16,393 nucleotides of DNA, from the NCBI GenBank assembly GCA_041178085.1, contig JBEGVZ010000076.1, positions 1 through 16,393 of the forward strand, given 5' to 3'. The position numbers and the translations under genes were made by a program. The DNA is from Pseudomonadota bacterium. Its GTDB lineage: Bacteria; Bdellovibrionota_B; Oligoflexia; Oligoflexales; RGVZ01. Of the stretch, positions 598-16,393 are shown one piece after another. The notes beneath the pieces were generated by a model. It made no database searches and had not been told where the DNA came from. It saw only the letters and a program-made list of their open reading frames with translations. Position 1 is the stretch's first letter. Every line of letters starts with the position of its first letter.

Positions 598-789
598 ATG
601 CGCACCACCGTTATCCTGAAGGACGAACTCGTCAAAAAAGCTATGGAAGTTACTAACATCAAAGAGAAAACGGCCCTGATCCACGCCGGACTGCAGGCTC
701 TAATTGACATGCACGCACGTCATCGTTTGATTGCGCTGGGCGGATCGGATCACAAAGCCAAGCCGGGAAGCAGAAGGAAAGCATTCTGA
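598..789 (+). CDS. vapB: Type II TA antitoxin, VapB family (ribbon-helix-helix, MRTT type)
   Basis: 63 aa. MRTTVILKDELVKKAMEVT..EKTALIHAGLQALI...RLIALGGS pattern, GGAGG RBS, and the TGA overlaps the ATG of a PIN gene. Confidence 0.9.
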   Translation: MRTTVILKDELVKKAMEVTNIKEKTALIHAGLQALIDMHARHRLIALGGSDHKAKPGSRRKAF

Positions 790-1151
790 TGATGGTCCTG
801 GTTGACACATCCGTCTGGATTGATCATTTCAGATCGGCAGACCAAAAGCTGTCGGAACTTCTGGTGGACAACCTTGTGCTGGGCCACCCCATGGTCACAG
901 GCGAGCTGGCTTGTGGATCCCTTCGGCAGCGAGATGAGATATTGCCACTACTGAAGTTACTACCCCAGGCAGGCTCGGTTGAGTTTGAGGAAATGCTCGA
1001 ATTTATCGAAAACCGTCGGCTGTATGCTGTGGGATTAGGCTGGGTTGACGCGATGCTACTTGCATCTGCCCTTACATCGAACGCGCAGATCTGGACTAAA
1101 GACAAAAACCTGATTCGCGCGGCAAAATCACTGAAAATTAATTTCCACTAG
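789..1151 (+). CDS. vapC: Type II TA toxin, VapC PIN-domain ribonuclease
   Basis: 120 aa. PIN acidic motifs VLVDTSVWIDH, GELACG, GWVDAMLLAS, WTKDK. Translationally coupled to vapB (start 789 or 792). Confidence 0.93.
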   Translation: MMVLVDTSVWIDHFRSADQKLSELLVDNLVLGHPMVTGELACGSLRQRDEILPLLKLLPQAGSVEFEEMLEFIENRRLYAVGLGWVDAMLLASALTSNAQIWTKDKNLIRAAKSLKINFH

Positions 1152-1175: not shown

Positions 1176-1751
1176 TTAAACGCCAGCCTGTTTGCCGTAG
1201 CAACTTGCGCAGGCCGGCAAATATTTTTCTTCGCACCCAAGATCCACCACCGGACTATCATCATCAGGCCCCACAGCTCGGCCGTTGACCATCTTCAAGT
1301 TATAAATGGCCTTCCTGTTGCAGAAGTAACAAGTGGTCTTCACTTCTTCGATGGAATCCGCAAGCTCCAAGAGGCGCTTGCTGCCGGGAAAGAGAAACCT
1401 CTTGTAATCAGTCCTCAGGCCGTAACAGATCACCGGGATATTTTGCTTTGTTGCGATGACGCGCAACTGCCCGACAAGATCGGTCGACAGGAACTGCGCC
1501 TCATCCACGAGCAGACAATCGACCCCCGTAACGCGGGACTCGTCTATCCTTTGCCCTTCTACAAGAAGGATGTCCGCCTCCTGCTCAAGTCCGGCGCGGG
1601 AACGCACCTGCTTTTCACCAAAGCGCGTGTCGAGGGCGGGCTTCAGGATCAGAACGCGCTTGTTTTGTTGGCGGTAGTTGTGCGCAACGGCCAGCAGGTT
1701 GAGGGTCTTGGCGCTGCCCACCGCACCGTAACGAAAATATAACTTGGCCAT
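1176..1751 (-). CDS. tdk: Thymidine kinase
   Basis: 191 aa from ATG 1751. MAKLYFRYGAVGSAKT (P-loop), KPALDTR, VDEAQFL, CYGLRTD, LADSIEEVKT, Zn pairs CYFC and CASC. Confidence 0.96.
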   Translation of the reverse strand: MAKLYFRYGAVGSAKTLNLLAVAHNYRQQNKRVLILKPALDTRFGEKQVRSRAGLEQEADILLVEGQRIDESRVTGVDCLLVDEAQFLSTDLVGQLRVIATKQNIPVICYGLRTDYKRFLFPGSKRLLELADSIEEVKTTCYFCNRKAIYNLKMVNGRAVGPDDDSPVVDLGCEEKYLPACASCYGKQAGV

Positions 1752-1782
1752 TTGCGCCGCCCGCCCTGCTATTCCTGAGTGT

Positions 1783-2517
1783 TCAACTGCGTTGCAGGCA
1801 TTCAAACACGACATCCAGGCGCAGCGAAGGGAAAAGCGAGGGATGCAGGCTTTCGCGGTTATCCAACAGAAAACGGGATAACTGGCGGTCGGCCAAAGCA
1901 CGCAACGTAGGACCACCCTCATCAGCCGGCAGGATGACGGCAAACGCGCCAACGCTGGCCATGCGCCCCGGCTGGACCCGCGCTGTCTCCATCAACGCAT
2001 GACCAAGCACATGCATGCTGACCCGCGCTTCCTCAAGTATCCTCGTGATTACGGATGGGTAGTCCATTTCTGACGCCTGCTGCCGGATGCGGCGTATCTC
2101 TCCTGCAAGCGTTGCGACGTCGGTGGTCGGGTCCACCAGCAAAAGGACACCGGCCTCGTCGAGAATCGTCAAGAAATCCCGCCGCGGGCCGCGACCTGGC
2201 CTTTCACCCGCGGCCGCGCTCGACTCCGCTTCTATCGCTTCATGATGGATCTGATTGATAGCGACCTTCGACCGGGGAAACAACGACCATGCCATAAGGT
2301 TGTAATAATCATGAAGCGACCCCCGGCGAACCGCCAGCACCCCTTCTGTAAAAATCCGCTCCTCGTAATTGCCACGGGTGCGGCCAAAATCGACTGTGCG
2401 CGGCACACCGGAGACACCAACATTGCTTAAAAAACTGGCAATGAAATGCACGTCACCAGACTCAACCGCCCGCCACAGGGCTGGATGCTCCTGCAACAAT
2501 GTCCCCGGAAGTCGCAA
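1783..2517 (-). CDS. DUF3025-like protein
   Basis: Motifs YEERIFTEG..VRRGSLHDYYNLMAWSLFPRSKVAIN, RGPRRDFLTILDEAGV and HVLGHALME match my recollection of the DUF3025 family. Start codon (TTG 2517) is uncertain. Confidence 0.75.
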   Translation of the reverse strand: MRLPGTLLQEHPALWRAVESGDVHFIASFLSNVGVSGVPRTVDFGRTRGNYEERIFTEGVLAVRRGSLHDYYNLMAWSLFPRSKVAINQIHHEAIEAESSAAAGERPGRGPRRDFLTILDEAGVLLLVDPTTDVATLAGEIRRIRQQASEMDYPSVITRILEEARVSMHVLGHALMETARVQPGRMASVGAFAVILPADEGGPTLRALADRQLSRFLLDNRESLHPSLFPSLRLDVVFECLQRS

Positions 2518-2825: not shown

Positions 2826-4781
2826 TTAGGGCATGTAAATGTGGCCCCAACCGTCTTTGATTTCCAGACCTGTTACCGAAGGTTTTGCATACTTGAAGGC
2901 AAGCTGCCCGAAGTTTGCCATGGCCTGCCAACCTGACCCAAGACTGATCGACGGTCCGTATTGGTAGGTTGTATCGCCAAATGCTGCAGGCAAAAAAGCC
3001 GTCACTTTGGCGACATCCAGCGAAGCGCCGTACATGAGTCCCGCACTGTCGGCCCATGAATTGTTGATGCCTAAATAAAGTTTTCCGCCACTGACTGGAT
3101 TAGCCGGGTTATCAACCTGGACAAAGACCCGGATCACGTCCCCCGCCTTCAACGGAGGCAACAGTTCATCACCTGATAACTTCAGCCTTTTCGCTGTCGA
3201 TCCCTGAGGAAGCAGCGAAGCGCCAAGATCGATACCTGCTTCGAATGTACTGGCCAGAGGTAAATTCAGGTCTGCTCCGAATTTGAAAGCCCCAGCAGTC
3301 GAATTGCAGGAACGCGTGACGAGGACCTCGAAGTACCAGGCGCCTGAAGATTTCCGCGATGCCGCGACGAACCCTTTGGGCTGTGCTGCCTGCACAATAC
3401 TTGCGTTTGCGACGTGACGGCAATTTGCCTGCGCTGTCGCAACATCCTTGCAGGCATATCCAAGCGATCCCAAAGTGAATCCAACGTCGGGAGTGAAACC
3501 ACTGGATTGCGCAGCGCTGGCGGGGTACGCGCTGGCAACAGCATCCTGACACAACAACTCGCTGGGAGGCGTTGGTTCTGGAATCGGCGGAACGACGCGG
3601 GGGTCATTCGCTGTTTCGATGCGCCCTGAGATTTTTTCGCCTGGCTGATCGATCCTGGTCAATGAATAAGCCGGTTGGTTCCTGTCGTTAAGGTCGTCAA
3701 AGTCGATAACCCCTTTCCAGTTGTTGACCTGCACATCCGCCTTCCCGCTGCGGTAACGCCCAAGCTCCCCGGAGGGCAGCCTTTCAACGATCAACTTTGA
3801 GCGGTCGATCAAAATCAGAACTTTGAGCATCTCATCCCCTGCAAGAGAAAGCTGCGCGCCACCACCCGCCATCGACAGGATGGAATGCAGAGAAGGGGTC
3901 AACATCCTTCGCGGGATGCCAAAACTGCTCGATGTGCTCAGGCCCAGGTTCGCTCCGGCTTCAGACCGCGGAGGCAGTAAAGTTATCTTCTCGTTGAAAT
4001 CGACGCAGGCACCGTCGACGACGGCCTTTTTCTCGGGACCAATTTTCCGGCGGCATTTGCCCCCGTCAGGACTGCCGAAAAACCGCCGGGACTCCTCGTG
4101 GAACTTCGCTTGCAAACTGGCAGCCGGCGCCCCCTGACCATTTAATTTTTTCAACGCCTCAGAAATGTCGACTTCAAAAAGGGAAGCATGGGAGACGCGA
4201 GATTCCACTACGGAGGTACTTTTTCCACAGCTGCTCAACCGTTCGCTAAAGACGCTGTTCATCGGCTCCAGGGGAGACGAAAGCCCGGAAAAATCGCCGC
4301 CCCCACAGCGCCCCTCCATGAGAATTGCGAAATGGCCGGAAATCCTGGCACCTGATTTCATGAGGGGGTCTTCCGTGCACGTATTATCTGCCGAAAGTCC
4401 AATCGAACCCCTTGCCTTATAAGTGTCCCCAGCACCTTCGATCGTGATCTGCTGACCGATTTTGTCGCAATTTGATTCCTGGTCGTCTGGTTTCTCCGGA
4501 GCATTGGAGGCGTTAGGCCCGGTGTTGTCCTCACTGTCCGCCCGGTCGTTGATGAAGTCCCCTTCTTTGCGCAGGACTTCTTCGACCATGCTTCTGCTCA
4601 ACACTGTTTTGCCGGTAAAACTGAAAGACGCGCCGCTGGTTGGTAACGCCACGGAGGCAGGCTGCTCGCCCCCTTTTCGCCGCCCTTCGATCTTTCGGCG
4701 CTGACTGTCCAGAGAACAGCCCGTCAAGCCTGCGATCATAAAAACCAGAAACCTGGCTATGCGATGCGATGCATGAGGCAT
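2826..4781 (-). CDS. Cys-rich lipoprotein with C-terminal SPRY/B30.2-like domain (651 aa)
   Basis: AGGAG RBS before ATG 4781. Signal peptide ends in the lipobox LTGC. Pro-rich linker VVPPIPEPTPPS. C-terminal SGAWYFEV...GDVIRVFV...GKLYLGINNSW...YGPSIS...ANFGQLAFKYAKP follows the SPRY pattern. Confidence 0.75.
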   Translation of the reverse strand: MPHASHRIARFLVFMIAGLTGCSLDSQRRKIEGRRKGGEQPASVALPTSGASFSFTGKTVLSRSMVEEVLRKEGDFINDRADSEDNTGPNASNAPEKPDDQESNCDKIGQQITIEGAGDTYKARGSIGLSADNTCTEDPLMKSGARISGHFAILMEGRCGGGDFSGLSSPLEPMNSVFSERLSSCGKSTSVVESRVSHASLFEVDISEALKKLNGQGAPAASLQAKFHEESRRFFGSPDGGKCRRKIGPEKKAVVDGACVDFNEKITLLPPRSEAGANLGLSTSSSFGIPRRMLTPSLHSILSMAGGGAQLSLAGDEMLKVLILIDRSKLIVERLPSGELGRYRSGKADVQVNNWKGVIDFDDLNDRNQPAYSLTRIDQPGEKISGRIETANDPRVVPPIPEPTPPSELLCQDAVASAYPASAAQSSGFTPDVGFTLGSLGYACKDVATAQANCRHVANASIVQAAQPKGFVAASRKSSGAWYFEVLVTRSCNSTAGAFKFGADLNLPLASTFEAGIDLGASLLPQGSTAKRLKLSGDELLPPLKAGDVIRVFVQVDNPANPVSGGKLYLGINNSWADSAGLMYGASLDVAKVTAFLPAAFGDTTYQYGPSISLGSGWQAMANFGQLAFKYAKPSVTGLEIKDGWGHIYMP

Positions 4782-4878
4782 GGAGAGCTCCTGATCCCAA
4801 TGAGAACTGCCAGATGGTTCGGTTTTTCTACGGAAACCTTGAAGGCGTTTTGCCACGTACGACGATTATTCAAGTCGC

Positions 4879-4932: not shown

Positions 4933-5034
4933 CCAATTCATAGGGCTTGGGTGTTCCCGGCCGGGGTGAATGATTTTTTGCCCCAAGCCGGATCAAGGTC
5001 GCCCGGTCCGCCAAAAAGGAGGCATCGAAGGACT

Positions 5035-5340
5035 ATGAGGAAGCCGCTGACGTATAACGAAAATGTGTACTTCTTCCAGCGCGATCGCGAGCTCATCCAT
5101 GAAATGGAGGAGAAGCGTCGCCAGGTGCAGCATCGCCGCGAGACGCACAATCACGTGGGACATTGCACCGCCTGCGGGGAAGACACCATCGAGGTCACGC
5201 TTGAGGCAGCTCACATGCATGTCTGCCCGTCGTGCCACGGTGTGTTTGTCGAAGGCGAGGCTGTATCGGAGCTTCTGCGCCGTGATGCGGTCACCATGGT
5301 GACCGGCGGCAAGAAGCGCAAGCGGAACCAGGCTGCCTGA
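5035..5340 (+). CDS. Zinc-ribbon (zf-TFIIB-like) protein
   Basis: 101 aa. ENVYFFQRDRELI charged helix, then CTAC...CPSCHGVFVEGE (CxxC-x16-CxxCxGV[WF] pattern). AGGAGG and GAAGGA RBS candidates upstream. Confidence 0.8.
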   Translation: MRKPLTYNENVYFFQRDRELIHEMEEKRRQVQHRRETHNHVGHCTACGEDTIEVTLEAAHMHVCPSCHGVFVEGEAVSELLRRDAVTMVTGGKKRKRNQAA

Positions 5341-5436: not shown

Positions 5437-6204
5437 TCAGAAGGCGTAGCCGAGACCCATGCTAAGCTCCGGAATTGGTCGAAGCGCAAGCCGCGTGTCA
5501 GGAAGCGTGTTGATCATTGACTCATAATCCGCAACGGCCTGGGAGTCCTTGCTATCCACGTTGACGCTGCGACGGAAGTAGTGCGAGATGCCGGCACCCA
5601 CCGTTACCGAAAGACTCTGACTGTTAACCAGCCAACGGTTGCCCATGCCCAGGGACAGTCCGTGCCGCATGTCCGTGATCAAGTCGGTTTCGTCCATCGG
5701 CGATTCTGCGGAGACATCCACCGGCAATGCATTCGCGGAATCGAGAGATTCCGTGTAACGGTTGGCGCGGGAGTTGACCCGAACGTAGTCATAGCTCATC
5801 CGGGCATAGAAGCCCCGCATCGATTCCGGCACTTCCCAGAAGCTGACATTCCAGCGCAAGCGCACGGCATCGAGCTTTTGCCGCTCACCAGGAAAAAGGT
5901 CCTCGCGACGAACGAGACCTTCGGAGTCGCCCTTCGCAAGGAAGGTTCCGCTCCAGATCTCAGGCCCCATGGAAAAGCGCTCACCGACATTGAAGTCCAC
6001 CGCAGCACCGAATTTACTGGTTGAGATTCCACTGGCACGTTCCTCGTAGAGAGCGGACGAAGGCGCCACCGGATCGATTTCCGCAACGAGGCGGCGGTTG
6101 ACGTTGGCGGCGAGAGCCTGCCCTGAAACGATCCCACCAAGGACAGCAAATGCTGCGTATGAAAACGTCACTGACATTGCCTGCCTGGTCCTGATGCAGT
6201 GCAT
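5437..6204 (-). CDS. Predicted outer-membrane beta-barrel protein (hypothetical)
   Basis: 255 aa. GGAGG RBS, signal peptide ending ALA, alternating amphipathic strands, C-terminal LSMGLGYAF (YxF beta-signal). Confidence 0.75.
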   Translation of the reverse strand: MHCIRTRQAMSVTFSYAAFAVLGGIVSGQALAANVNRRLVAEIDPVAPSSALYEERASGISTSKFGAAVDFNVGERFSMGPEIWSGTFLAKGDSEGLVRREDLFPGERQKLDAVRLRWNVSFWEVPESMRGFYARMSYDYVRVNSRANRYTESLDSANALPVDVSAESPMDETDLITDMRHGLSLGMGNRWLVNSQSLSVTVGAGISHYFRRSVNVDSKDSQAVADYESMINTLPDTRLALRPIPELSMGLGYAF

Positions 6205-6358: not shown

Positions 6359-6429
6359 CGCACCCCAACGGGACCCTGTTTCCGGACTGATCCTGTTTTT
6401 GGGAGGGCGAGAGCCAGACGGGATACATG

Positions 6430-6458
6430 TTGATCCATCAATAGCCATGCACTATCTT
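6430..6458 (+). promoter_or_regulatory. Candidate sigma70 promoter of the carotenoid operon
   Basis: TTGATC (6430-6435)-17 bp-TATCTT (6453-6458). Confidence 0.45.
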
Positions 6459-7535
6459 TTCTCAGTGACTATCTTCAATAACGACCTCTTTACGCGTGCC
6501 GCGAGCCTGAGCAATTGGCCGGGTGTCGGATCCTATTTGCCGACGAAAAAGGACCGCGGTAGCGTCGATGTCCCGTCCGATGCTTTCCTGCCCCCGCCAC
6601 AGGCGTTCGATGCTTTGATCAAACCGGTTCGTGAATTTGTCGGGCGTGACTCAAAACAAGTGCGCGCCCAATTGGTCGGGATCGGTTTTGATCTTTCCCG
6701 GGACTCAGAAGCCGCAGCAACGGGGCGCGGCCCCCTCCTCGAATGTCTGGCTTGCGTGGTCGAGGCGCTACACGCTGGATCGCTCGTCATTGATGACATC
6801 CAGGATGCCAGCGACGTTCGCCGCGGCGAACCTTCCCTCCACCGCCAGATCGGAGTTCCGCTCGCCATAAATGCTGCCAACTGGCTGTACTTCTGGCCCG
6901 CCGAATTGATCAGGAAGCAAAACCTCGACTCCGGTATGGAGTTGGAAATATACCGGCTGTTTCATGCCACCATGACCCGGGCGCACTACGGGCAGGCTCT
7001 GGATCTTGGACACGACATGACTCAAGTGCCCCAGGATCATGTGCGGGACATTTCATTGGCGACAATAGAACTCAAAACCGGGGAGCTCATGGCCATGTGC
7101 GCTGAGCTCGGTGCTATCGCCGGTGACGCAAGTCCGGAGCGGCGAGCGAACCTGGCCATGTTTGGCCGGCGCTTTGGCGTGGCGCTACAAATGTTCAACG
7201 ACATCGCTGAAGTGGCTGGCGCAGCAACTTTCACGGAATCGCAAGTGTCGTTCAGGCGACCTTCCTGGCTCTGGGCTGTGGCCGCGAACGAACTTGATCC
7301 GGATGAATACAGTCAATTTCAATTGCTGATGAAGATACCCGACGTACGTGACGATCACACGACTCTTTCACAGCACCCAGTTGTAGCCCAAGCCATCACG
7401 CTGGCTTGTGCAGAAATGAAAAACACGATGAATCTTGTGGCAGAAATAACCGGAGATCCAAAATCAGCCAGCCATGAGAAAGCTCTTCACGTCATCAAGG
7501 AACTTGCCCGGAAAGTCATGAGTGCCTATGCGTAA
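6447..7535 (+). CDS. crtE: Polyprenyl (geranylgeranyl) diphosphate synthase
   Basis: LHAGSLVIDDIQD..RRG (first Asp-rich motif), AINAANWLYF, GQALDL, KTG, LQMFNDIAE. First gene of the crt cluster and overlaps the crtI start. Start uncertain (ATG 6447 or GTG 6465). Confidence 0.88.
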   Translation: MHYLFSVTIFNNDLFTRAASLSNWPGVGSYLPTKKDRGSVDVPSDAFLPPPQAFDALIKPVREFVGRDSKQVRAQLVGIGFDLSRDSEAAATGRGPLLECLACVVEALHAGSLVIDDIQDASDVRRGEPSLHRQIGVPLAINAANWLYFWPAELIRKQNLDSGMELEIYRLFHATMTRAHYGQALDLGHDMTQVPQDHVRDISLATIELKTGELMAMCAELGAIAGDASPERRANLAMFGRRFGVALQMFNDIAEVAGAATFTESQVSFRRPSWLWAVAANELDPDEYSQFQLLMKIPDVRDDHTTLSQHPVVAQAITLACAEMKNTMNLVAEITGDPKSASHEKALHVIKELARKVMSAYA

Positions 7536-9090
7536 GACCAGAGAACCAGCAAAGGTGGCCGTCATTGGCAGTGGTTTTGGCGGACTTGCTGCAGCGATCC
7601 GGCTGCAGGCGGCAGGCCACCAAGTCGTCCTGTTTGAAAAACGGGACCAACCTGGTGGCAGGGCCTATGTATACCGGGACAAGGGATTCACGTTTGACGC
7701 AGGTCCGACTGTGATAACCGCTCCGGACTGTTTACGTGAACTGTTCGATTGTGCCGGCAAGAAGCTGGATGATTATGTCGAACTCTTGCCAGTCACCCCA
7801 TTTTACCGGCTATTCTGGGAAAGCGGCTTCCGCTTCGACTACTCGAATGATCCGGACAGCACATTCGATCAAATCCAGAGAAAATCCCCGTCTGACGCCA
7901 AGGGGTACAGGGATTTCCTGGAATACTCGAAAGAAGTTTTCGACGAAGGATACACCAAGCTGGCGCATGTCCCGTTCCTTGACTGGTGGAGCATGATTCG
8001 TGTGGCTCCCCAGTTACTTCGCCTGAGTGCCTATCGATCGGTATTCAAGACCGTGGCTCGCTTCATCAAAGACCGGGAGCTGCGCCAGGCTTTCAGCTTC
8101 CATACCCTGCTGGTCGGTGGAAACCCCTTCAAGACATCTTCCATCTATACGTTGATCCATTATCTCGAGCGCAACTGGGGAGTCTTTTTCCCGCGCGGCG
8201 GCACTGGAGCCCTCGTGAGGGCGCTGGTCCGGGTTTTTGAAGAAATGGGTGGCGAGGTGCGGCTTTCCACCCCGGTTGAGGAAATCGTCACGCAGGCTGG
8301 AGTCGTAACAGGTGTCAGAACGGCCAGCGGAACCTGGCCTTGTGATGTCGTGATCTCCAACGCCGACGTGGTGCACAGTTACAGCCACTTGTTGCGCAAC
8401 GCCGCAGAGGCGGAACCATCCAGAAAAAAAGCGCTGCGGCAATCGCAGAGCATGTCCCTTTTCCTGATCTATTTCGGCACCAAACGGCAATACCCGGAAC
8501 TGGCGCACCACAACATTCTTTTCGGCAAATCATACCGTGGTCTGCTGAAAAAAATATTCAGCAAGGCAGATGCCATTCCCGAAGAATTTTCTCTCTATCT
8601 TCATGCGCCAACGCGATCAGACCCGGGTATGGCCCCAGACGGCTGTGAGGCATTTTATGTGCTGTCACCTGTCCCGCATCTTGGCCATCTGGACATTGAC
8701 TGGAAAAAAGAAGGGCCTGCCTACGCAGACAGGATCCTCGATTATATTGAGAAGCACTACGCCCCGGGGCTGCGACAGGAAATTGTGACGCAGCGGATCT
8801 TCACACCGGAGGACTTCAAGCTTGAACTGAACGCCCACCTGGGATCTGCATTCTCCAGTGAACCTGTGCTCTGGCAAAGTGCGTATTTCCGTACGCACAA
8901 TCGCTGCGACCAGCTCAAAGGCATGTATTTCACGGGAGCCGGAACCCATCCCGGTGCCGGGGTGCCCGGTGTCGTCAATTCCGCAAAAGCAACCGCAACA
9001 CTGGTGATCCAGGACTTGATGTCGGAAAAGATTCCCGCAGGCAGCCGACCGGATGAAGGCCTTGAACAACTCAGTATCATCCCAAGTTGA
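7528..9090 (+). CDS. crtI: Phytoene desaturase
   Basis: 520 aa. VIGSGFGGLAAAIRL FAD-binding motif, FDAGPTVIT, LLVGGNPF, SAYFRTHNR, GAGTHPGAGVPGV. Confidence 0.97.
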   Translation: MRKTREPAKVAVIGSGFGGLAAAIRLQAAGHQVVLFEKRDQPGGRAYVYRDKGFTFDAGPTVITAPDCLRELFDCAGKKLDDYVELLPVTPFYRLFWESGFRFDYSNDPDSTFDQIQRKSPSDAKGYRDFLEYSKEVFDEGYTKLAHVPFLDWWSMIRVAPQLLRLSAYRSVFKTVARFIKDRELRQAFSFHTLLVGGNPFKTSSIYTLIHYLERNWGVFFPRGGTGALVRALVRVFEEMGGEVRLSTPVEEIVTQAGVVTGVRTASGTWPCDVVISNADVVHSYSHLLRNAAEAEPSRKKALRQSQSMSLFLIYFGTKRQYPELAHHNILFGKSYRGLLKKIFSKADAIPEEFSLYLHAPTRSDPGMAPDGCEAFYVLSPVPHLGHLDIDWKKEGPAYADRILDYIEKHYAPGLRQEIVTQRIFTPEDFKLELNAHLGSAFSSEPVLWQSAYFRTHNRCDQLKGMYFTGAGTHPGAGVPGVVNSAKATATLVIQDLMSEKIPAGSRPDEGLEQLSIIPS

Positions 9091-9091
9091 A

Positions 9092-10036
9092 ATGACACCC
9101 GGCCAGGCAATCCGGCAGGGCTCAAAAAGCTTTGCGCTTGCGTCGCTCTTCTTGCCGTCAGCCTCCCGCCAACGCGCACTGATCCTCTATCAATGGTGCA
9201 GGAACTGCGATGACGCGATTGACGAAGCGCCTGACGCTGAATCTGCACGACTTCAACTTTCCAGGATGGAGGACCGGGATTTAGCCGGCCCCACCCTCGC
9301 AGGGCCGGAGTGGCTCGACGACTGGCAGCGATCAGAATTCATAGCCGGGATGCGCATGGACGTCGAGGGACGGTCCTACGAGCACCTGGAGGACCTCGAG
9401 CAATATTGCTTCCGCGTTGCCGGGGTCATCGGACTTATGATGTGTCCGCTTTTAGGGGCGCATCCTGAGATGGCTCCTCCGCATGCCGTCTCACTTGGCT
9501 GCGCCATGCAATTGACTAATATTGCGCGGGACGTACAGGCAGACGCGCGCCTGGGGCGGGTTTATATTCCGCAAAAGTTACTGCCAAACTTGATAGATGA
9601 TCAGGCGAATTCCCTTTGCGCCCACCCTGAACTCACGCACGCAGCCGTGCGGATTCTTCTGAGTCGCGCGGACGAACTCTACGAAAACGGATTTCATGGC
9701 CTCGCGTGGTTGCCTTGGCGCGTTGCATTCGCGATCGCAGTTGCAGGCAAGGTCTACCAGCGAATTGGACACAAACTCCTGCGTACAGCTGCAGTAAACC
9801 CCTGCCGGGCGTTCGGAAACAGGACCGTCGTTTCCTTACCCGGCAAGCTGTCTGCCGTTGCATCAGCTGGATTGCTGGTGCTGAAAATCAAAATTATCCG
9901 GTCACGGAGCGGATTGAGACCGGTCACCATTCCGGCTTTTGGTCCCAATCGTGGCGGCAAGAAATCCAGCCACCGCGAACCACCACCAGGTCTCCTGGAT
10001 GCCACGACTCATTTCGGGCCCACCCTGAAAGATTGA
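9092..10036 (+). CDS. crtB: Phytoene synthase
   Basis: GSKSFALAS, YQWCRNCDDAID, GMRMD, YCFRVAGVIG, QLTNIARDVQADARLGRVYIP. ATG 9092 lies 1 bp after the crtI stop (alternative start 9053). Confidence 0.95.
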   Translation: MTPGQAIRQGSKSFALASLFLPSASRQRALILYQWCRNCDDAIDEAPDAESARLQLSRMEDRDLAGPTLAGPEWLDDWQRSEFIAGMRMDVEGRSYEHLEDLEQYCFRVAGVIGLMMCPLLGAHPEMAPPHAVSLGCAMQLTNIARDVQADARLGRVYIPQKLLPNLIDDQANSLCAHPELTHAAVRILLSRADELYENGFHGLAWLPWRVAFAIAVAGKVYQRIGHKLLRTAAVNPCRAFGNRTVVSLPGKLSAVASAGLLVLKIKIIRSRSGLRPVTIPAFGPNRGGKKSSHREPPPGLLDATTHFGPTLKD

Positions 10037-10128: not shown

Positions 10129-10893
10129 TCATGAATTCCTCCTGCTCGCGGGCAGCCGGAACCATGGCAAGCCCGGATGCTTGTGATGGGTCAGATGATA
10201 ACCGAAGTGCCAGCAGGAAATCAGCGACAATAACCACGGGTAGCCTGAATCCCGTGCATGATGCCGGTCTGCAAAAGGCTTTCCGGCCTTGGGGCGATGT
10301 GGCAGCCACGTACCGAAAAAAAACAATTGGATCCCGCTCAAAACCGCCGGCAGAACCCAGAACTGGATCACATTTCTTTCGGGGATTTTCAGCACATGAA
10401 AGAAGACCTGTGCCACAGCCATCAAGACCAGGACCTGGCGAAGGCCCAGATACTGCCGGAAGAATCGCCAGCCCCACCCTACGAAACCAGCTCCACCGGG
10501 TGTCGACTGATCGTAAAAATCGGGATCTTGTGAGGATGCCACGTGCAAGTGATGGGCAGCGTGTTTCGGGACCAGCTGGTCAAAGTCGAAAGCAGCATAA
10601 AGCGCTGCCGTGATACGGCCAAGCCACCGATTCAGGCGTGGATTCCCTGGGCAGGCCGTTCCGTGGCAGGCGTCGTGGGTGACGATAAACATTCCACAAT
10701 AGAGAAACTGGATCCACAACACCAAGGCAAGTGCGGCTGGCGAGTCCGGCAAAATCCCCGTCTGGAATTGAAAAAAAGCGTAAAAAATACTTCCTGCCCA
10801 CAAACCGATGACAGCAACCGCCAGAAAGGGGGCAAGCAGATCGCGTTTATCAGACAGAAAAATGCTGGAATTTCCTTGTTCAGGGCGGATCAG
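10129..10893 (-). CDS. crtW: Beta-carotene ketolase (CrtW type, fatty-acid-desaturase superfamily)
   Basis: His boxes GMFIVTHDACHG, KHAAHHLH..DPDF and CWHFGYHLTHH, plus LFFFGTWLPHRP and PWFRLP. The frame stays open upstream of the called TTG (10803), through a hydrophobic helix, to a CTG at 10893 preceded by AGAAAGGA. Confidence 0.9.
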   Translation of the reverse strand: MIRPEQGNSSIFLSDKRDLLAPFLAVAVIGLWAGSIFYAFFQFQTGILPDSPAALALVLWIQFLYCGMFIVTHDACHGTACPGNPRLNRWLGRITAALYAAFDFDQLVPKHAAHHLHVASSQDPDFYDQSTPGGAGFVGWGWRFFRQYLGLRQVLVLMAVAQVFFHVLKIPERNVIQFWVLPAVLSGIQLFFFGTWLPHRPKAGKPFADRHHARDSGYPWLLSLISCWHFGYHLTHHKHPGLPWFRLPASRRNS

Positions 10894-10927
10894 GTGCTAT
10901 CCTTTCTGGATTAAAAGGGTCCCGGCC

Positions 10928-11773
10928 ATGTGGGCATTGTTTATCATCAATGCGATATCAATCTTCGGATACGCAACTTTTACGCTACATCCGGAATTGC
11001 TGGCGCGCTACCCCTGGTCACCGCCGATCTACGCCGTGTCTTATCCCCTGTTTGCTCAACTGCAGATTTTTTTGGGGTTCTGGCTGTGCATAAGGGCCTG
11101 CCACAAGGCGATGAAATGGCGCTGGATCAGTTATTTCATCCCGGCATTTCTCATCAGTTTTGCGATGGAGTATGGCGGCACAACTTATGGCATTCCGTTT
11201 GGAAAATATACCTACACAAGCCTGCTTGGTTGGAAAATCGCCGACAAGGTGCCACTGCTGATTCCAATTAGCTGGTTTTGCATGTCCTTGTGTTGTTACC
11301 TGCTATCGGCCCTCATCACAGGCGGGACACGCCGCCCGATCTTTCACCAGCCATCCAGGCGATGGCAGCCATCCCTGGAACGCATCGGTCTTGCGGCGCT
11401 TTTGATGATTGCCTGGGATTTTACCCTCGAACCAGCAATGAGCCAATTGACCCCTTACTGGGTCTGGGAGGAATCTGGTGTCTTTGTTTTTGGCGTTGCA
11501 GTGCGTAACCTGCTCGGCTGGCTGATTACTGGTCTGATGATTTTTTCCAGCTTTGAAGCGCTTCGCCTGGGTGATTATGTCTCCCTCTTCGCGGCAGAGT
11601 GGCCAGGGCATTTTTACCTGCTAAACCTATTTCTTCCCCTCGGACTCGCAATGGCTGGCGGAGCGTGGGTCCCCGTTTTCCTGACGACTGCGGTTCTTGT
11701 GGCCTGCCTTGTCTTTGCCTTGACGAGGGGAACCCTGCGACGCGGGCTGCTGATCCGTGGCACCGCAACATAA
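10928..11773 (+). CDS. cruF: Carotenoid 1,2-hydratase (CruF family)
   Basis: 281-aa multi-TM protein. EYGGTTYGIPFGKYTY..LG....VPLLIPISWF, WDFTLEPAM, YWVW, NLLGW. Located in the crt cluster. Confidence 0.88.
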   Translation: MWALFIINAISIFGYATFTLHPELLARYPWSPPIYAVSYPLFAQLQIFLGFWLCIRACHKAMKWRWISYFIPAFLISFAMEYGGTTYGIPFGKYTYTSLLGWKIADKVPLLIPISWFCMSLCCYLLSALITGGTRRPIFHQPSRRWQPSLERIGLAALLMIAWDFTLEPAMSQLTPYWVWEESGVFVFGVAVRNLLGWLITGLMIFSSFEALRLGDYVSLFAAEWPGHFYLLNLFLPLGLAMAGGAWVPVFLTTAVLVACLVFALTRGTLRRGLLIRGTAT

Positions 11774-12413
11774 CAGGACAATCCGCTGGTTATGGGACCG
11801 CTACCTGGCATTCAGGTACCGCGGGGCTTTCGCCGCCATTCACTTCAATCTTTCTGCCGCCGAGGGCAACCTCGATCCTTCACTGCCGGTCATCCTGATT
11901 CCCAACCACATCAGCTGGTGGGATGGATTTATGTGTTTCGAGATCCAGCGGCGGCTGCGGCCAGGTTCGGGAATTTATTCGTTGATGCTCGAAACCGAAT
12001 TGCGGAAGTTTCCGGTTTTAAGACAGGTCGGATGTTTCGGGATACATCCAGGCAACCCGGCAAGTGTGCGCAGGGCATTCATGCAGTTTCGGGACCTCGT
12101 CACCGCAGACCCATACCGTACCTTGACTTTTTTTCCGCAGGGACGGATTTCGCCAATGCGCCAACGGCCTTTGCGATTCTCACGCGGCATTGAACTTCTG
12201 GTCAGGCTTTCCGGACGTGTCCAGTGCATCCCTGTCGCCTTGCACATCGAACCCTTGAACGCGGCCAAGCCAACATTTTTTGTTCATGCCGGGAAACCTA
12301 TCGACAGCCGTGACCGGAAAATCACTAGCAAACTGCTGGAAGAAGAAGTCACCAATCTTTTGGATCAAGTCTCGATCACCAGTCCGATGAAGTTCCTTAC
12401 GGAGGGAACCTGA
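11757..12413 (+). CDS. PlsC-family acyltransferase, probable carotenoid-glycoside acyltransferase (CruD-like)
   Basis: 218 aa. NHISWWD (HxxxxD) and FFPQG motifs. The GTG start overlaps the end of cruF by 17 bp and the stop overlaps the GT2 start. Confidence 0.85.
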   Translation: MAPQHNRTIRWLWDRYLAFRYRGAFAAIHFNLSAAEGNLDPSLPVILIPNHISWWDGFMCFEIQRRLRPGSGIYSLMLETELRKFPVLRQVGCFGIHPGNPASVRRAFMQFRDLVTADPYRTLTFFPQGRISPMRQRPLRFSRGIELLVRLSGRVQCIPVALHIEPLNAAKPTFFVHAGKPIDSRDRKITSKLLEEEVTNLLDQVSITSPMKFLTEGT

Positions 12414-13576
12414 TGTCGCAGTGGACAGTCATGCTGCTAAACGGGCTGGCCTGGCTTTCCCTCGGGATGTTGATTGTCGCCGCCATCATGGCGGTCCTCA
12501 ATGCGATCTTTACGGGCCGGCTTCGTCTGGATGCAAAGCCTGTCGCCGACGGCCCACTGGTCAGCGTACTGATCCCAGTTCGCAATGAGTCAGATAACCT
12601 CCGGAATCTTTTACCCGCGCTCATGGCGACTACATTCAAAAACATTGAGGTGATCGTCCTTGACGATGAATCCACCGATGGATCCCATGAAATTGCCTTT
12701 TCGATCCTTCAGAACGCCAGCTTCCCCGCGCAAGTCGTTAACGGCCAGCCGTGGTCGCCGTCGCTAGGTCTCTCGGGCAAGACACATGCGTGTGCACAGC
12801 TCGCGGAATTGGCACGTGGAGAGATCCTGATTTTCTGTGACGCTGATGTACTGCCTTCCCCCGACGCTGTGGGACTCACATCTGCCCATTTGTCGAGCCC
12901 TGGGTTTCGTGATCATGCGGCCGGCCTGTCCGCACTTCCTGGGCAGTCCTGTCGGGGGTGGCGCGAACGCTCACTTATCCCCTGGGTCATGCACTTGCCG
13001 CTCATGATCACGGTACCTCTTTTTTGCTCGTGGCGATTGCCAACTGAATCCATCCAGATCGCCAACGGCCAGTGGCTCGCGTTGTATGCGCGTGACTACA
13101 TCGCCAGCGGCGGCCATCGAGCCCTGGGCGCGACTCCGTTGGAGGACGTCACCCTGGCAAGGCAGGTCCAGCGCAAAACCGGACGTGGAGTCCGCCCAGT
13201 GTTTGCTGCCAGCGACATTACTGCCGCGATGTACGTCGATTGGCACTCAATGGTGAATGGATTCTCGAAAAACCTTGTCTCAATTGGCGGCGGGACGCCG
13301 GGACGGTTCCTGGCCGTAATCATGTTGCTAAACATTGTCTTCCTGTTTCCCATGTGGGGTTGGCTGGTTCAACCCGGTTTGGCAGCAACCGGACTTCTGG
13401 CGTGCGTGCTTTTGCGCCTTGTGACGGCCACCGTTTTCAAGATGCCAGCCTGGGATTTGTTGAGGCACCCAGCTAGTTTGTTTTTGCTCGACCTGGCAGC
13501 CTGGAAAGCGATCAAGACCAGCTTGCGCGGCGCTTATGAATGGAAAGACCGGGTGGTTAAATGGTCCGCAACATGA
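12413..13576 (+). CDS. Family 2 glycosyltransferase, probable hydroxy-carotenoid glycosyltransferase (CruC/CrtQ-like)
   Basis: 387 aa. N-terminal TM, VSVLIPVRNE, DDESTDG, GKTHAC, FCDAD (DxD), ANGQ, LEDV, C-terminal TMs and WKDR. Located in the crt cluster. Confidence 0.88.
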   Translation: MSQWTVMLLNGLAWLSLGMLIVAAIMAVLNAIFTGRLRLDAKPVADGPLVSVLIPVRNESDNLRNLLPALMATTFKNIEVIVLDDESTDGSHEIAFSILQNASFPAQVVNGQPWSPSLGLSGKTHACAQLAELARGEILIFCDADVLPSPDAVGLTSAHLSSPGFRDHAAGLSALPGQSCRGWRERSLIPWVMHLPLMITVPLFCSWRLPTESIQIANGQWLALYARDYIASGGHRALGATPLEDVTLARQVQRKTGRGVRPVFAASDITAAMYVDWHSMVNGFSKNLVSIGGGTPGRFLAVIMLLNIVFLFPMWGWLVQPGLAATGLLACVLLRLVTATVFKMPAWDLLRHPASLFLLDLAAWKAIKTSLRGAYEWKDRVVKWSAT

Positions 13577-15615
13577 ATGCGCGCGATCCAGATTTTGATG
13601 TGATCATCATCGGTGGCGGGCTTGCCGGGATGATGCACGCTGATTTTATCGCGGATGACAAGTCGCCGGATCTTCGCGTGGCGATAATCGATCCCGACCC
13701 GGATTTGCTGGCACAAAAGACCTTCGCTGCGTGGCGTCTGAAGTCCTCGCTGCCGCATCGATACTCCAATTGCGTCGAAAATCGCTGGGGGCATTTTCGG
13801 ATCACCTGCCAGGACGGCCAGCAGGTTTTGCGGGACTTCGGCGCACATTGCTATGAGCGAATCCCAGGCGAGCGATTGATGACCAGGATCCGGAGCAGGC
13901 TCGAAGGGGATTCCCGCTTTCAAATCCTTCGGGATGAAGTCACCACCATCTTGGACGCGGGCACTTCGCAAAATCCCGGCCAGGCTGGACAAGTTACGAC
14001 TGCGTCTGGAGAAGTTCTGTCCGCAAAGCGGATTATCAGCTCCGTGACGGCAGGAGATCCAGAAGTCCTGCAGTATTTCCTTGGCTTTGAAGTGGAAACG
14101 ACAGTGGACCACTTTGATCCCGACGTGGTGGACTTGATGGACTTTCGCGTTGAGCAAGAGAGCGACGTCAGATTCGTCTACATACTTCCGTTCACGAAGC
14201 GGCAAGCACTGGTGGAGTTCACAGTTTTCTCCGCGACACGGATATCGGCACCGGAATGCGAAGCTATCCTTCGCGATTACATTGGAAAAAGCCTGGCATT
14301 GCCGGATTTCACGATCACAAAAGTTGAATCGGGAGCAATCCCCATGACGCTGAACGCACAGCCACGTTTTCCAGCGGCCAGCATGCGTTCGGTCATCGAG
14401 GTTGTGGGGGGCGCTGCCGGCATGGTCAAACCAAGCACAGGATATTCTTTCCAGCGCAATTTTGAATCTCTCAATGACCCGTCGCGCCTGACCTCAACGA
14501 CTTCATACTGGCATTTCCGTTTCCAGGTATACGACGCCTTGCTGCTACGGATCATACAGGCCAAGGGCGCGATGATCTCAAAAATTTTCCCTGTGCTATT
14601 CACCGCGAATGCACCATCCAGGATCTTCGCATTTCTTGACGAAAAATCTGCGTTCTTCGATGAAATAAAAATTTTTTTTCGACTTCCGTGGATCCCGTTC
14701 CTTGGCAGCCTTGTGGTTTTATACCCGTTTTTGTTCGCTTCGTCGGCCAGCGCCATTCTTTACCACACGGTCGGCGGCGCATCCGTCTGGGTCATTCCAG
14801 TCATTGGCTTGCTGACAACTGGAATTGCGCACGGAAGCCTGGATCACTTGCTCGACCGCGAAGACCGAAGCCGCATTCCGTTTTACACCCGATATATCGG
14901 CTCCATCGCGGCATTCCTGTTCGTCTGGTACATCTATCCGCCTCTGGCATTTGCTTTTTTTATTTTTCAATCAGCGGATCACTTTGGTGAGGCCAACTGG
15001 ATACGCGCCCTGCGGAATTCCGGGTATGCGGCTTGGACGCGTGCGCTTGCCTGGATTTGGGGAATGTTTGCCGCGCTTTTTGGCGTTCTCGTCCATTGGC
15101 AAGAGGCCAGCCCCATTGTCCAACGGATTCTGCAGGACTCCGTACCTGTCTCTGCCCTTTCAGCGAGTGTCGCCCGCGGGGCTGGTCTGCTTATTTTCGT
15201 TGCCGCCTTGCTGGCGTCATGGACACTCGACCGCTATGAACGCAAGGTACTGGGGCGGGCAGTTTGCGGCCTGCCGGCGACCGCGATGCTTGGCATGTCC
15301 ATCCTGGCTTTGCCGTTACTGCCCGGCTTTTTCTGCTTCTTCGCTTTCTGGCATGGATGGGACTCGATCGTAGCGCAGCGGGCTGCCACGGGCTGGACAT
15401 CAAAGGAGTATGCACTCCGGGCGGCGCGCTATACGTTTATCAGCGTTACAGGGATTTTCCTGCTGTTCGTGTTGTATTCAGCGTGGTCTGAGCACGACCG
15501 TATCTGGCAAATACTCTTTGTCATGATTGGCGCATTGACTGCCGCACACGCGCCAGTCATGAAGGGTTTTCTGAAAAGAAAACCGCCCCGCTTTTGGAGC
15601 GGGGCGGTTAGCTGA
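13573..15615 (+). CDS. crtY-blh: Fusion protein: lycopene beta-cyclase (CrtY) plus Blh/Brp-family beta-carotene 15,15'-dioxygenase
   Basis: One 680-aa frame with an ATGA overlap on the GT2 stop. N-half: DVIIIGGGLAG, LMDFR, FVYILPF, ALVEFT, ESGAIPM, GGAAGMVKPSTGYSF. C-half is multi-TM: GIAHGSLDH, SADHFGE, FFAFWHG, ALTAAH. Confidence 0.9.
   Translation: MNARDPDFDVIIIGGGLAGMMHADFIADDKSPDLRVAIIDPDPDLLAQKTFAAWRLKSSLPHRYSNCVENRWGHFRITCQDGQQVLRDFGAHCYERIPGERLMTRIRSRLEGDSRFQILRDEVTTILDAGTSQNPGQAGQVTTASGEVLSAKRIISSVTAGDPEVLQYFLGFEVETTVDHFDPDVVDLMDFRVEQESDVRFVYILPFTKRQALVEFTVFSATRISAPECEAILRDYIGKSLALPDFTITKVESGAIPMTLNAQPRFPAASMRSVIEVVGGAAGMVKPSTGYSFQRNFESLNDPSRLTSTTSYWHFRFQVYDALLLRIIQAKGAMISKIFPVLFTANAPSRIFAFLDEKSAFFDEIKIFFRLPWIPFLGSLVVLYPFLFASSASAILYHTVGGASVWVIPVIGLLTTGIAHGSLDHLLDREDRSRIPFYTRYIGSIAAFLFVWYIYPPLAFAFFIFQSADHFGEANWIRALRNSGYAAWTRALAWIWGMFAALFGVLVHWQEASPIVQRILQDSVPVSALSASVARGAGLLIFVAALLASWTLDRYERKVLGRAVCGLPATAMLGMSILALPLLPGFFCFFAFWHGWDSIVAQRAATGWTSKEYALRAARYTFISVTGIFLLFVLYSAWSEHDRIWQILFVMIGALTAAHAPVMKGFLKRKPPRFWSGAVS
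15571..15609 (-). terminator. Intrinsic terminator of the rhodopsin transcript, embedded in the crtY-blh 3' end
   Basis: Perfect 12-bp stem AACCGCCCCGCT (15581-15592) / AGCGGGGCGGTT (15598-15609) with a 5-nt loop. On the minus strand it is followed by TTCTTTT and starts about 45 nt after the rhodopsin stop. Confidence 0.8.
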
Positions 15616-15652
15616 TTTTGAATCAGTTCTTCGCGGGTGTTTTACCCGGGAA

Positions 15653-16393
15653 TCAGTGAGCTGCTGCGGTGAAGCCTTCCGCCTCAGACTTGGCGCGCGC
15701 GATCCAGTAGATCATCACGCCATAGAATGCCTTGGCAAGCACATCAGCGATCGCATAACCAACCTGGATACCCACAACGGATGACTGAGGGTTGATGCCA
15801 AACATTGGCAGCATGTAGGTGATCGGATAGAAGCCCCAAGTCAGGAGAAGAAGAAGACGGATATTGACCAGCAGGACCTTGGCTTCACCCGGTTGGGTCT
15901 CGATGGCTTTGCCCAGTTTGCCCCAGAGTACCATCAGGATGTAGACGAACGGGATGGAAGACAGGGTTCCCCAAATCGCGCGGGTCGTGTTGTCCGTTGC
16001 AATTTCACCCGGGTAACCGAGAGCGATCATGAGGAAAGCTGCGATTGCGAGCTTGCCAAAAAGGCCTTCACGCTGATTCTTCGGCAGCGCCAGAACGGCA
16101 ACGAGTTCGACGAGGAGGAGGGGCACCGTGAGGAGCCAGTCAACATAACGGTAGGCATCGTTGAACGGCTTGCCAGATGGCGTGTACATGTTGCCATTCA
16201 TGGTGAAAGCTTCGTTCCAGCTATTAAAGATACGGAAGTAGTGGTAGCACGCGATCGCGACGACAATCGAAGAGACCAGCAACGCGCCACGATACTTCGG
16301 GGCTACTTGCGAACGGCCTGCCAGGAAAAAAATAAAGGCAGCACCCATGCTCGCAATGGTGAAAGAAAACACGTTATAGACCAGATAAAATTG
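15653..16393 (-). CDS. Xanthorhodopsin-family light-driven proton pump (N-terminus beyond window)
   Basis: Frame open to the edge (QFYLVYNVFSFTIASM...). Motifs YHYFRI, PFNDAYRYVDWLLTVPLLLVEL (D-T-E), LGYPGE, WGTLSSIPF, TWGFYPI, and retinal Lys in ADVLAKAFYG. Confidence 0.96.
   Translation of the reverse strand, partial: QFYLVYNVFSFTIASMGAAFIFFLAGRSQVAPKYRGALLVSSIVVAIACYHYFRIFNSWNEAFTMNGNMYTPSGKPFNDAYRYVDWLLTVPLLLVELVAVLALPKNQREGLFGKLAIAAFLMIALGYPGEIATDNTTRAIWGTLSSIPFVYILMVLWGKLGKAIETQPGEAKVLLVNIRLLLLLTWGFYPITYMLPMFGINPQSSVVGIQVGYAIADVLAKAFYGVMIYWIARAKSEAEGFTAAAH

Follow-up and report, generated by a model that had tools for sequence, protein, structure and literature searches.

The window analysed here comprises 16,393 nucleotides of contig JBEGVZ010000076.1 (assembly GCA_041178085.1) from a bacterium of the order Oligoflexales, and contains a crtY::blh gene whose 680-residue product, P0001, carries a flavoprotein lycopene cyclase domain followed by a Blh carotenoid-cleavage domain. 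P0001 is a natural in-frame fusion of the flavoprotein cyclase with the membrane protein Blh, and probably acts as one bifunctional enzyme that converts lycopene to retinal for the neighbouring xanthorhodopsin. This function is considered likely because both domains exceed the cut-offs of their profile hidden Markov models (HMMs), residues of key importance are conserved, and selection is purifying in either half. In these respects the original prediction of a possible one-polypeptide lycopene-to-retinal enzyme, made from the letters of the window, was supported; rarity of the fusion was not.

One frame with two conserved domains

The gene extends from ATG at 13573 to TGA at 15613-15615 as 680 codons without an internal stop, as originally read, and the sequence ATGA (ATG at 13573) joins its start codon to the TGA that ends the preceding glycosyltransferase gene. 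P0001 scored 168 bits against the Pfam model PF05834 (Lycopene_cycl; gathering cut-off 23.4) and 85.5 bits against PF15461 (cut-off 28), and the NCBIfam model for Blh, TIGR03753, was matched at 104 against a cut-off of 95.25; the HMM check that had been proposed was thus passed by both Pfam domains. Every predicted motif was found in its place, namely GGGLAG (Rossmann) at 13612, MDFR at 14137, F.Y.LP at 14173, Glu215 at 14215 and KPSTGY at 14428 in the cyclase, and the histidine codons at 14830, 14980, 15352 and 15547 in Blh. Between residues 330 and 424, in-frame start codons occur as ATG at 334, GTG at 341 and 381, and TTG at 387 and 413; none of those within the junction has a clear Shine-Dalgarno sequence, in agreement with the earlier remark that no internal ribosome-binding site with ATG was obvious. 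The Blh half was found to contain ten hydrophobic segments over residues 365-662, some of them overlapping, and its model is helical throughout, as expected of a protein with about nine membrane helices.

That an assembly or sequencing artefact joined two genes can be dismissed with near certainty, even though the source genome assembly consists of 136 contigs. Contigs from three other public runs bridge the junction with no gaps: X2 covers 13300-16393 entirely with 48 differences, X4 covers 14039-15581 with 30, and X7 covers 14603-14975 with 3. This bridging evidence consists of assembled contigs rather than raw reads; a contig of run X1 also crosses the junction, but may be the source of the assembly itself. 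The sole listed change in the junction region, A14670T in X2, is a third-position Lys-to-Asn substitution that creates no stop. Nine relatives align to P0001 from residues 3-12 to residues 668-679 without an internal stop, and both domains recur together in the further protein clusters described below. The contigs crossing the junction revealed no indel, and the artefact was refuted. No RNA run appeared among the 22 runs listed, which speaks neither for nor against expression.

Purifying selection acts on the cyclase and Blh halves alike. The ratio of nonsynonymous to synonymous substitution rates (dN/dS) was 0.055-0.163 for the cyclase half and 0.074-0.147 for the Blh half in nine of 11 genome pairs, the other two being saturated, and 0.00-0.35 for junction residues 377-407. 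Glu215, which we take to be the catalytic acid of the lycopene cyclase, and the F.Y..P motif are invariant in all 117 aligned cyclase domains, while His420, His470, His594 and His659 are invariant in all 119 aligned Blh domains. The cyclase-family features present include the N-terminal dinucleotide-binding motif, F.Y.LP, the conserved Glu, KPxTGY and a flavoprotein fold like that of geranylgeranyl reductase. An AlphaFold model of the whole chain (predicted local distance difference test, pLDDT, 91.9; predicted template modelling score, pTM, 0.91) has helices continuous over the junction and predicts a compact two-domain protein without a flexible linker. In a fold search, the N-terminal half came nearest to the geranylgeranyl reductase and squalene epoxidase flavoproteins, whereas the Blh half modelled alone (pLDDT 72) matched generic helical bundles at Z ≤6.3. 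No solved structure matched P0001 in a sequence search.

Distribution, precedents and origin

The full-length fusion was found in one open frame, at 63-72% identity, in nine of the 40 relatives searched; three more match partially, as two standalone cyclases and one standalone Blh. Among genomes of the same family, 9/21 carry the fusion in an open frame, and the closest named loci belong mostly to Oligoflexales metagenome-assembled genomes. Besides P0001, a protein search returned at least 41 clusters of full-length proteins with the two domains, 39-76% identical to it, together with a second group at 24-30%. A profile built from 16 proteins of this second group retrieved 972 proteins at E ≤1e-30; the best 120 all have both Pfam domains, and the three named ones among them are Bacteroidota. 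In total, at least 169 clusters (90% identity) besides P0001 carry both domains in at least 600 residues; the architecture occurs in numerous uncultured bacteria, and the idea of a rare fusion was accordingly rejected. The original prediction was to fall if the architecture proved both common and described; it is common, but apparently undescribed.

In a sample of 127 genomes from the phylum of the window, Blh was found in 15, being fused in 12 (one split over two contigs), standalone in two and cut by a contig end in one, and the fusion is retained down to 44% identity. In a second sample, 401 genomes of the phylum to which a Cytophagales genome belongs, Blh was found in 51; it lies in fusion-length frames at 2/55 places and is standalone at 53/55. 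The fusion is thus dominant in the source lineage and a minority form in Bacteroidota. Within the family (22 genomes), the 11 genomes that have Blh are also the 11 that have a rhodopsin; Blh is fused in ten of these, and crtB occurs in exactly those ten. The family also includes G018 (91% complete), whose Blh is standalone, with His at position 192 of Blh numbering, and whose xanthorhodopsin is a different one, of 56% identity (L030 / L094, G018:C163:1002-2763). No crtB or cruF was found in G018, which may obtain carotenoids from outside.

Some further arrangements were seen. In another family of the same order, a fusion of the type closest to P0001 (near-type) adjoins a non-fenestrated proteorhodopsin (L023:9093-12079, L102, L103); cruF and the acyltransferase and glycosyltransferase genes are located elsewhere in these genomes, and crtB was found in G043 and not in G042. 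In the same genus as the window, G002 carries an additional cruF (49% identity) that converges on an additional rhodopsin paralogue of reduced length (L093:7818-9322, G002:C2), a 213-codon frame of 42% identity that is without the middle helices and has the helix C acid and Arg altered. This pair may be a copy of the two ends of the island that has decayed or been repurposed. A 641-residue protein (P0119, P0183) fuses Lycopene_cycl to PF00487, a desaturase-type domain that may act as a ketolase or hydroxylase, which makes it another cyclase fusion.

The literature searched, which covered parts of main texts outside subscription journals, including PMC10016063, PMC6789865, PMC5877348, PMC10284914 and PMC7701988, yielded no account of CrtY fused to Blh in a bacterium. 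The fusion is frequent in databases and belongs to a familiar kind. As two separate genes, crtY and blh are known from rhodopsin-crtEIBY-blh clusters (PMC10284914), and the Blh 66A03 has been studied as an enzyme (PMC9227343; bioRxiv 10.64898/2026.08.06.743266). Such clusters share with the island the same consecutive enzyme families, a proton-pump rhodopsin and crtEIB nearby, four conserved His and a multi-helix membrane domain. Unlike in these clusters, P0001 is one polypeptide with a divergent Blh subfamily that has no His at the 192 position, its gene ends a cruF-acyltransferase-glycosyltransferase run and is convergent with the rhodopsin gene, and its cyclase groups among Bacteroidota-type sequences. 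The nearest precedent is the CrtI-CrtB-CrtYc/d-Blh protein of Thecamonas (PMC10016063), in which a lycopene cyclase is likewise followed directly by a C-terminal Blh in one chain; however, this is a four-domain eukaryotic protein with an unrelated membrane cyclase of the CrtYc/d type rather than a PF05834 flavoprotein. Other natural fusions, CrtIBY, fungal CrtYB, verrucomicrobial CrtIB and Rhodothermus CruF-CrtB, the last being inactive when truncated (PMC7414004), also join consecutive carotenoid enzymes by stop-codon loss, but none joins a flavoprotein cyclase to a cleavage enzyme, as P0001 does.

Adjoining crtY and blh genes probably became fused when the stop separating them was lost, and standalone crtY lies directly 5' of blh in the Bacteroidota loci L075, L082 and L088. 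In cyclase trees, near-type and Bacteroidota fusions form separate clades (SH-aLRT branch support 100 and 98), the Bacteroidota fusions being sister to a standalone cyclase and the P0001 cyclase lying among Bacteroidota-type sequences. In Blh trees, near-type fusions form a subfamily of their own with 6-7 standalone-length proteins, some of which may be fragments. In approximately unbiased (AU) tests, run on quick trees under LG+G4 with 32 of 117 cyclase and 33 of 119 Blh rows, a single origin of all fusions obtained p 0.019 for the cyclase domain, or 0.20 with standalone L088 allowed inside as a fission, and p 5e-5 for the Blh domain, the latter driven by standalone rows nested among near-type fusions. 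These results suggest that the fusion probably originated twice, independently in the Bacteroidota group; one origin with later fissions is disfavoured. A word-indexed search with the Blh half returned only five near-length proteins; their contigs measure 0.7-1.7 kb, and the proteins are probably fragmentary. That near-type Blh never stands alone was nevertheless rejected, since a profile search revealed standalone-length relatives.

Proposed mechanism and competing explanations

In the proposed mechanism, CrtE, CrtB and CrtI would produce lycopene, which the N-terminal domain, held at the membrane via the Blh half, would cyclise to gamma- and then beta-carotene. The putative iron site formed by His420, His470, His594 and His659 would cut the 15,15' bond with O2. 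CruF, the glycosyltransferase, the acyltransferase and CrtW would divert part of the flux to a salinixanthin-like 4-keto monocyclic acyl-glycoside, and this antenna carotenoid would sit in the Gly156 fenestration of the rhodopsin. The likely gain from fusion would be that cyclase and Blh stay together in a constant 1:1 proportion, rather than obligatory channelling. Beta-carotene, gamma-carotene and canthaxanthin are substrates of Blh, whereas lycopene is not cleaved, and the balance between retinal and 4-oxo-retinal depends on how much Blh there is relative to the ketolase pathway (10.64898/2026.08.06.743266); proximity could therefore matter. Strict channelling is ruled out since the sole cyclase must also release product to the antenna branch.

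Several points weigh against this assignment. The cyclase half falls below the CrtY cut-offs of TIGR01789 (61.3 against 215.2) and TIGR01790 (97.6 against 209.5), and is thus classed as PF05834 only, not as a canonical CrtY equivalog. The structure of the antenna carotenoid is a deduction from gene content, and the rhodopsin Kin4B8 of a Bdellovibrionota bacterium has lutein and zeaxanthin as ligands (bioRxiv 10.1101/2022.08.24.505090). The source genome, G000 (96% complete), speaks for the assignment: one full PF05834 match and one PF15461 match were found, and no other PF05834 cyclase, CrtYc/d (PF18916) or RPE65, in a search that did not extend to CruA/CruP-type cyclases. The position of His192 is occupied by Ser598 in P0001, and by Ser or Thr in 21 of 21 near-type fusions. 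The H192A variant of 66A03 retained less than 5% activity (review PMC9227343), and if this older mutagenesis holds, the Ser weighs against activity. In a later account of 66A03, His21, His78, His188 and His256 form the iron plane and His192 lies outside it, as a proposed second-shell residue (10.64898/2026.08.06.743266). The four His of P0001 are spaced 50/124/65, against 57/110/68 for this plane, the equivalence being assigned by motif order and spacing rather than by aligning 66A03 or by three-dimensional geometry. In standalone Blh of the genome loci, the 192 column holds His in just 23 of 46, and in 0 of 21 Bacteroidota-type fusions; it is therefore not taken as defining for Brp/Blh.

The lost His, together with a divergent subfamily that scores 85 bits on Pfam, could mean that Blh has lost or changed its catalytic activity and is a mere membrane anchor for the cyclase. 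This is very improbable: the four plane His are invariant, dN/dS of Blh is as low as that of the cyclase, seven standalone-length proteins have the identical motif, the genome has no other Blh or RPE65, and Blh strictly co-occurs with rhodopsin. A more serious possibility, though one we do not favour, is that the cyclase half is a monocyclase forming gamma-carotene only, from which Blh would yield one retinal and an acyclic C20 aldehyde, the rest of the product going to the monocyclic antenna. The cluster is fitted to a psi-end product (cruF, glycosyltransferase, acyltransferase), Blh cleaves gamma-carotene (10.64898/2026.08.06.743266), and the Rhodothermus cyclase, a different enzyme from a different organism, needs a CruF-modified substrate, lycopene being otherwise the sole product (PMC7414004). 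On the other hand, a halved retinal yield would seem costly, and no sequence test used here separates mono- from bicyclases, a point that also tells against the bifunctional enzyme as proposed, for which formation of the beta-ring is a prediction. Apart from stoichiometry, a monocyclase is compatible with the bifunctional fusion enzyme.

As to what the join contributes, it may be neutral, a stop having been lost between overlapping operon neighbours with nothing gained beyond two genes. Most Bacteroidota Blh are standalone, adjoining crtY-blh pairs are common, and within one subfamily of the tree fused Blh alternate with standalone ones, indicating that fusion and fission are labile. However, the fusion is kept in 12 of the 15 Blh-bearing genomes of the phylum sample at identities down to 44%, it probably arose twice, and its junction is constrained; neutrality is accordingly held to be the less likely case. 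Doubtful too is true channelling, in which a rigid interface would pass beta-carotene from the cyclase to the Blh cavity before CrtW, as originally suggested, or CruF acts. The conserved junction without a flexible linker and the whole-chain pTM speak for it, as does the competition between Blh and ketolation, which is real in E. coli (10.64898/2026.08.06.743266). PF04240, the family of CruF, was matched in 13 of 14 fusion genomes checked, whereas among Bacteroidota genomes whose Blh is standalone it was matched in 17 of 49, kin not being independent; the matches in fusion genomes comprise 9/10 within the family, the miss being a 77% complete genome, and 4/4 others, two with an internal stop. 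Yet those 17 genomes combine CruF with unfused Blh, and the single cyclase must feed the antenna branch too. Moreover, CrtW was not found with the query used in G042, G043, G143 and G215, the 4/4 other fusion genomes checked. In G042 and G043 the near-type fusion is next to a non-fenestrated proteorhodopsin, and the other two are Bacteroidota. The proposal that the fusion exists because of CrtW is weakened by these genomes, and it is suggestive that CruF, a psi-end hydratase, is the competitor more often shared by fusion genomes. The far-reaching proposal that a twice-evolved, rigidly docked CrtY-Blh channels carotene from cyclase to dioxygenase as the branch-point valve of a self-contained antenna-rhodopsin island appears unlikely. 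In it, the retinal would be kept pure, and CruF and CrtW would make a native antenna, similar to salinixanthin, for a Kin4B8-like xanthorhodopsin from fresh water.

PF04240 matches with an internal stop were observed in the Bacteroidota G143:C6, G215:C84, G431, G351, G044 and G319, which could reflect short genes resembling cruF whose reading ran on into an adjoining gene, or broken genes.

The carotenoid island and its implications

Features of the fusion gene and of the carotenoid island in the window
Feature	Position	Strand	Basis and remarks
crtE, polyprenyl (GGPP) synthase	6399..7535	+	PF00348; start uncertain
crtI, phytoene desaturase	7522..9090	+	PF01593; relatives 76-85% identical
crtB, phytoene synthase	9053..10036	+	PF00494
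crtW-type carotene ketolase	10129..10803	-	NF045690 213 bits, below cut-off 350; PF00487; divergent from cruF
cruF, carotenoid 1',2'-hydratase	10808..11773	+	PF04240 148 bits; NF045693 best NCBIfam match, below cut-off; true start possibly up to ~40 codons further in
PlsC-type acyltransferase, predicted CruD-like	11757..12413	+	PF01553; function suggested by context
GT2 glycosyltransferase, predicted CruC-like carotenoid glucosyltransferase	12413..13576	+	PF00535; follows cruF as in the Rhodothermus pathway, which suggests the function
crtY::blh fusion gene, P0001, 680 residues	13573..15615	+	single frame; Pfam and NCBIfam; junction bridged in other runs; relatives
Lycopene cyclase domain, PF05834	13597..14463	+	residues 9-297; helical C-terminal part on to ~residue 375, nucleotide 14697
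Junction, residues 373-407	14689..14793	+	predicted helices, pLDDT >90, hydrophobic, no flexible linker
Blh domain, PF15461 (BCD), residues 412-664	14806..15564	+	Pfam, NCBIfam, aligned His, hydrophobic segments
Xanthorhodopsin	15653..16393	-	convergent with fusion; DTE; Gly at XR-156 fenestration site, motif ~15982; 5' end cut by contig end

The fusion is the last gene of the overlapping cruF-acyltransferase-GT2 run, in an island that also includes crtE-crtI-crtB, the divergent crtW and the convergent rhodopsin gene; this order is kept in nine relatives, of which five are complete and four are cut by contig ends. The best solved relatives of the rhodopsin are xanthorhodopsin (XR, 3ddl), GR (6nwd) and Kin4B8 (7ytb), at E about 1e-84 to 1e-86. 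With its place in the XR clade, its DTE motif and Gly at XR position 156, the protein is predicted to be an antenna-binding xanthorhodopsin, the fenestration Gly being the published criterion for antenna binding (bioRxiv 10.1101/2022.08.24.505090). At the family level, the salinixanthin-type gene set is complete (CruF, glycosyltransferase, acyltransferase, ketolase and cyclase), with CruF and CrtW below NCBIfam cut-offs. This gene set, together with the Rhodothermus pathway (PMC7414004) and the acI proposal (10.1101/367102), leads to the predicted 4-keto monocyclic acyl-glycoside, and the island likely yields both retinal and a salinixanthin-like antenna. Gly156 and these five enzymes are shared with the xanthorhodopsin-salinixanthin system of Salinibacter, the acyl-glucoside pathway of Rhodothermus, Gloeobacter rhodopsin and Kin4B8. 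Unlike in those systems, the ketolase is of the CrtW type, not CrtO, no second CrtI-like (CrtD) gene was found, and a single island of 10 kb holds all the genes, cyclase and Blh being fused, in a freshwater Oligoflexales bacterium. G000 was found to contain no CrtZ-type hydroxylase (PF04116) and no CrtD-like gene.

The last 120 bases of the window (16274-16393) recur at G000:C127:21950-22069, the end of C127, where the start of the rhodopsin gene is located; C127 is thus probably the neighbour of the window's contig, and seven further codons of the rhodopsin 5' end lie on C127. The xanthorhodopsin is unusually conserved, being 90-93% identical over two genera (L002-L010), against 53-85% for adjoining genes. 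The island is flanked by genes for a thymidine kinase (1176-1952, minus strand), a DUF3025 protein (1783-2517, minus) and a small Zn-ribbon protein (4951-5340, plus), and a PIN-domain (VapC-like) open reading frame lies at 789-1151 (plus). Two minus-strand frames, 2826-4856 (676 residues) and 5437-6204 (255 residues), have signal-peptide-like N-termini and no Pfam match, the shorter with a C-terminal Phe, as outer-membrane barrels have.

For vitamin A engineering, the fusion is a natural candidate module in which a single gene would cover the path from lycopene to retinal. Comparing its fused and split forms would be a clean way to test channelling from a peripheral flavoprotein to a membrane dioxygenase, whose structure has not been solved, and its divergent Blh is a natural test of His192 as an iron ligand. 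The island further supplies a candidate native keto-antenna for the freshwater xanthorhodopsins of this group, for which binding was shown with lake extract, lutein and zeaxanthin (bioRxiv 10.1101/2022.08.24.505090). Full-length members of the fusion family are labelled 'lycopene beta-cyclase', which hides blh from single-name annotation; surveys may therefore deem such rhodopsin bearers dependent on others for retinal.

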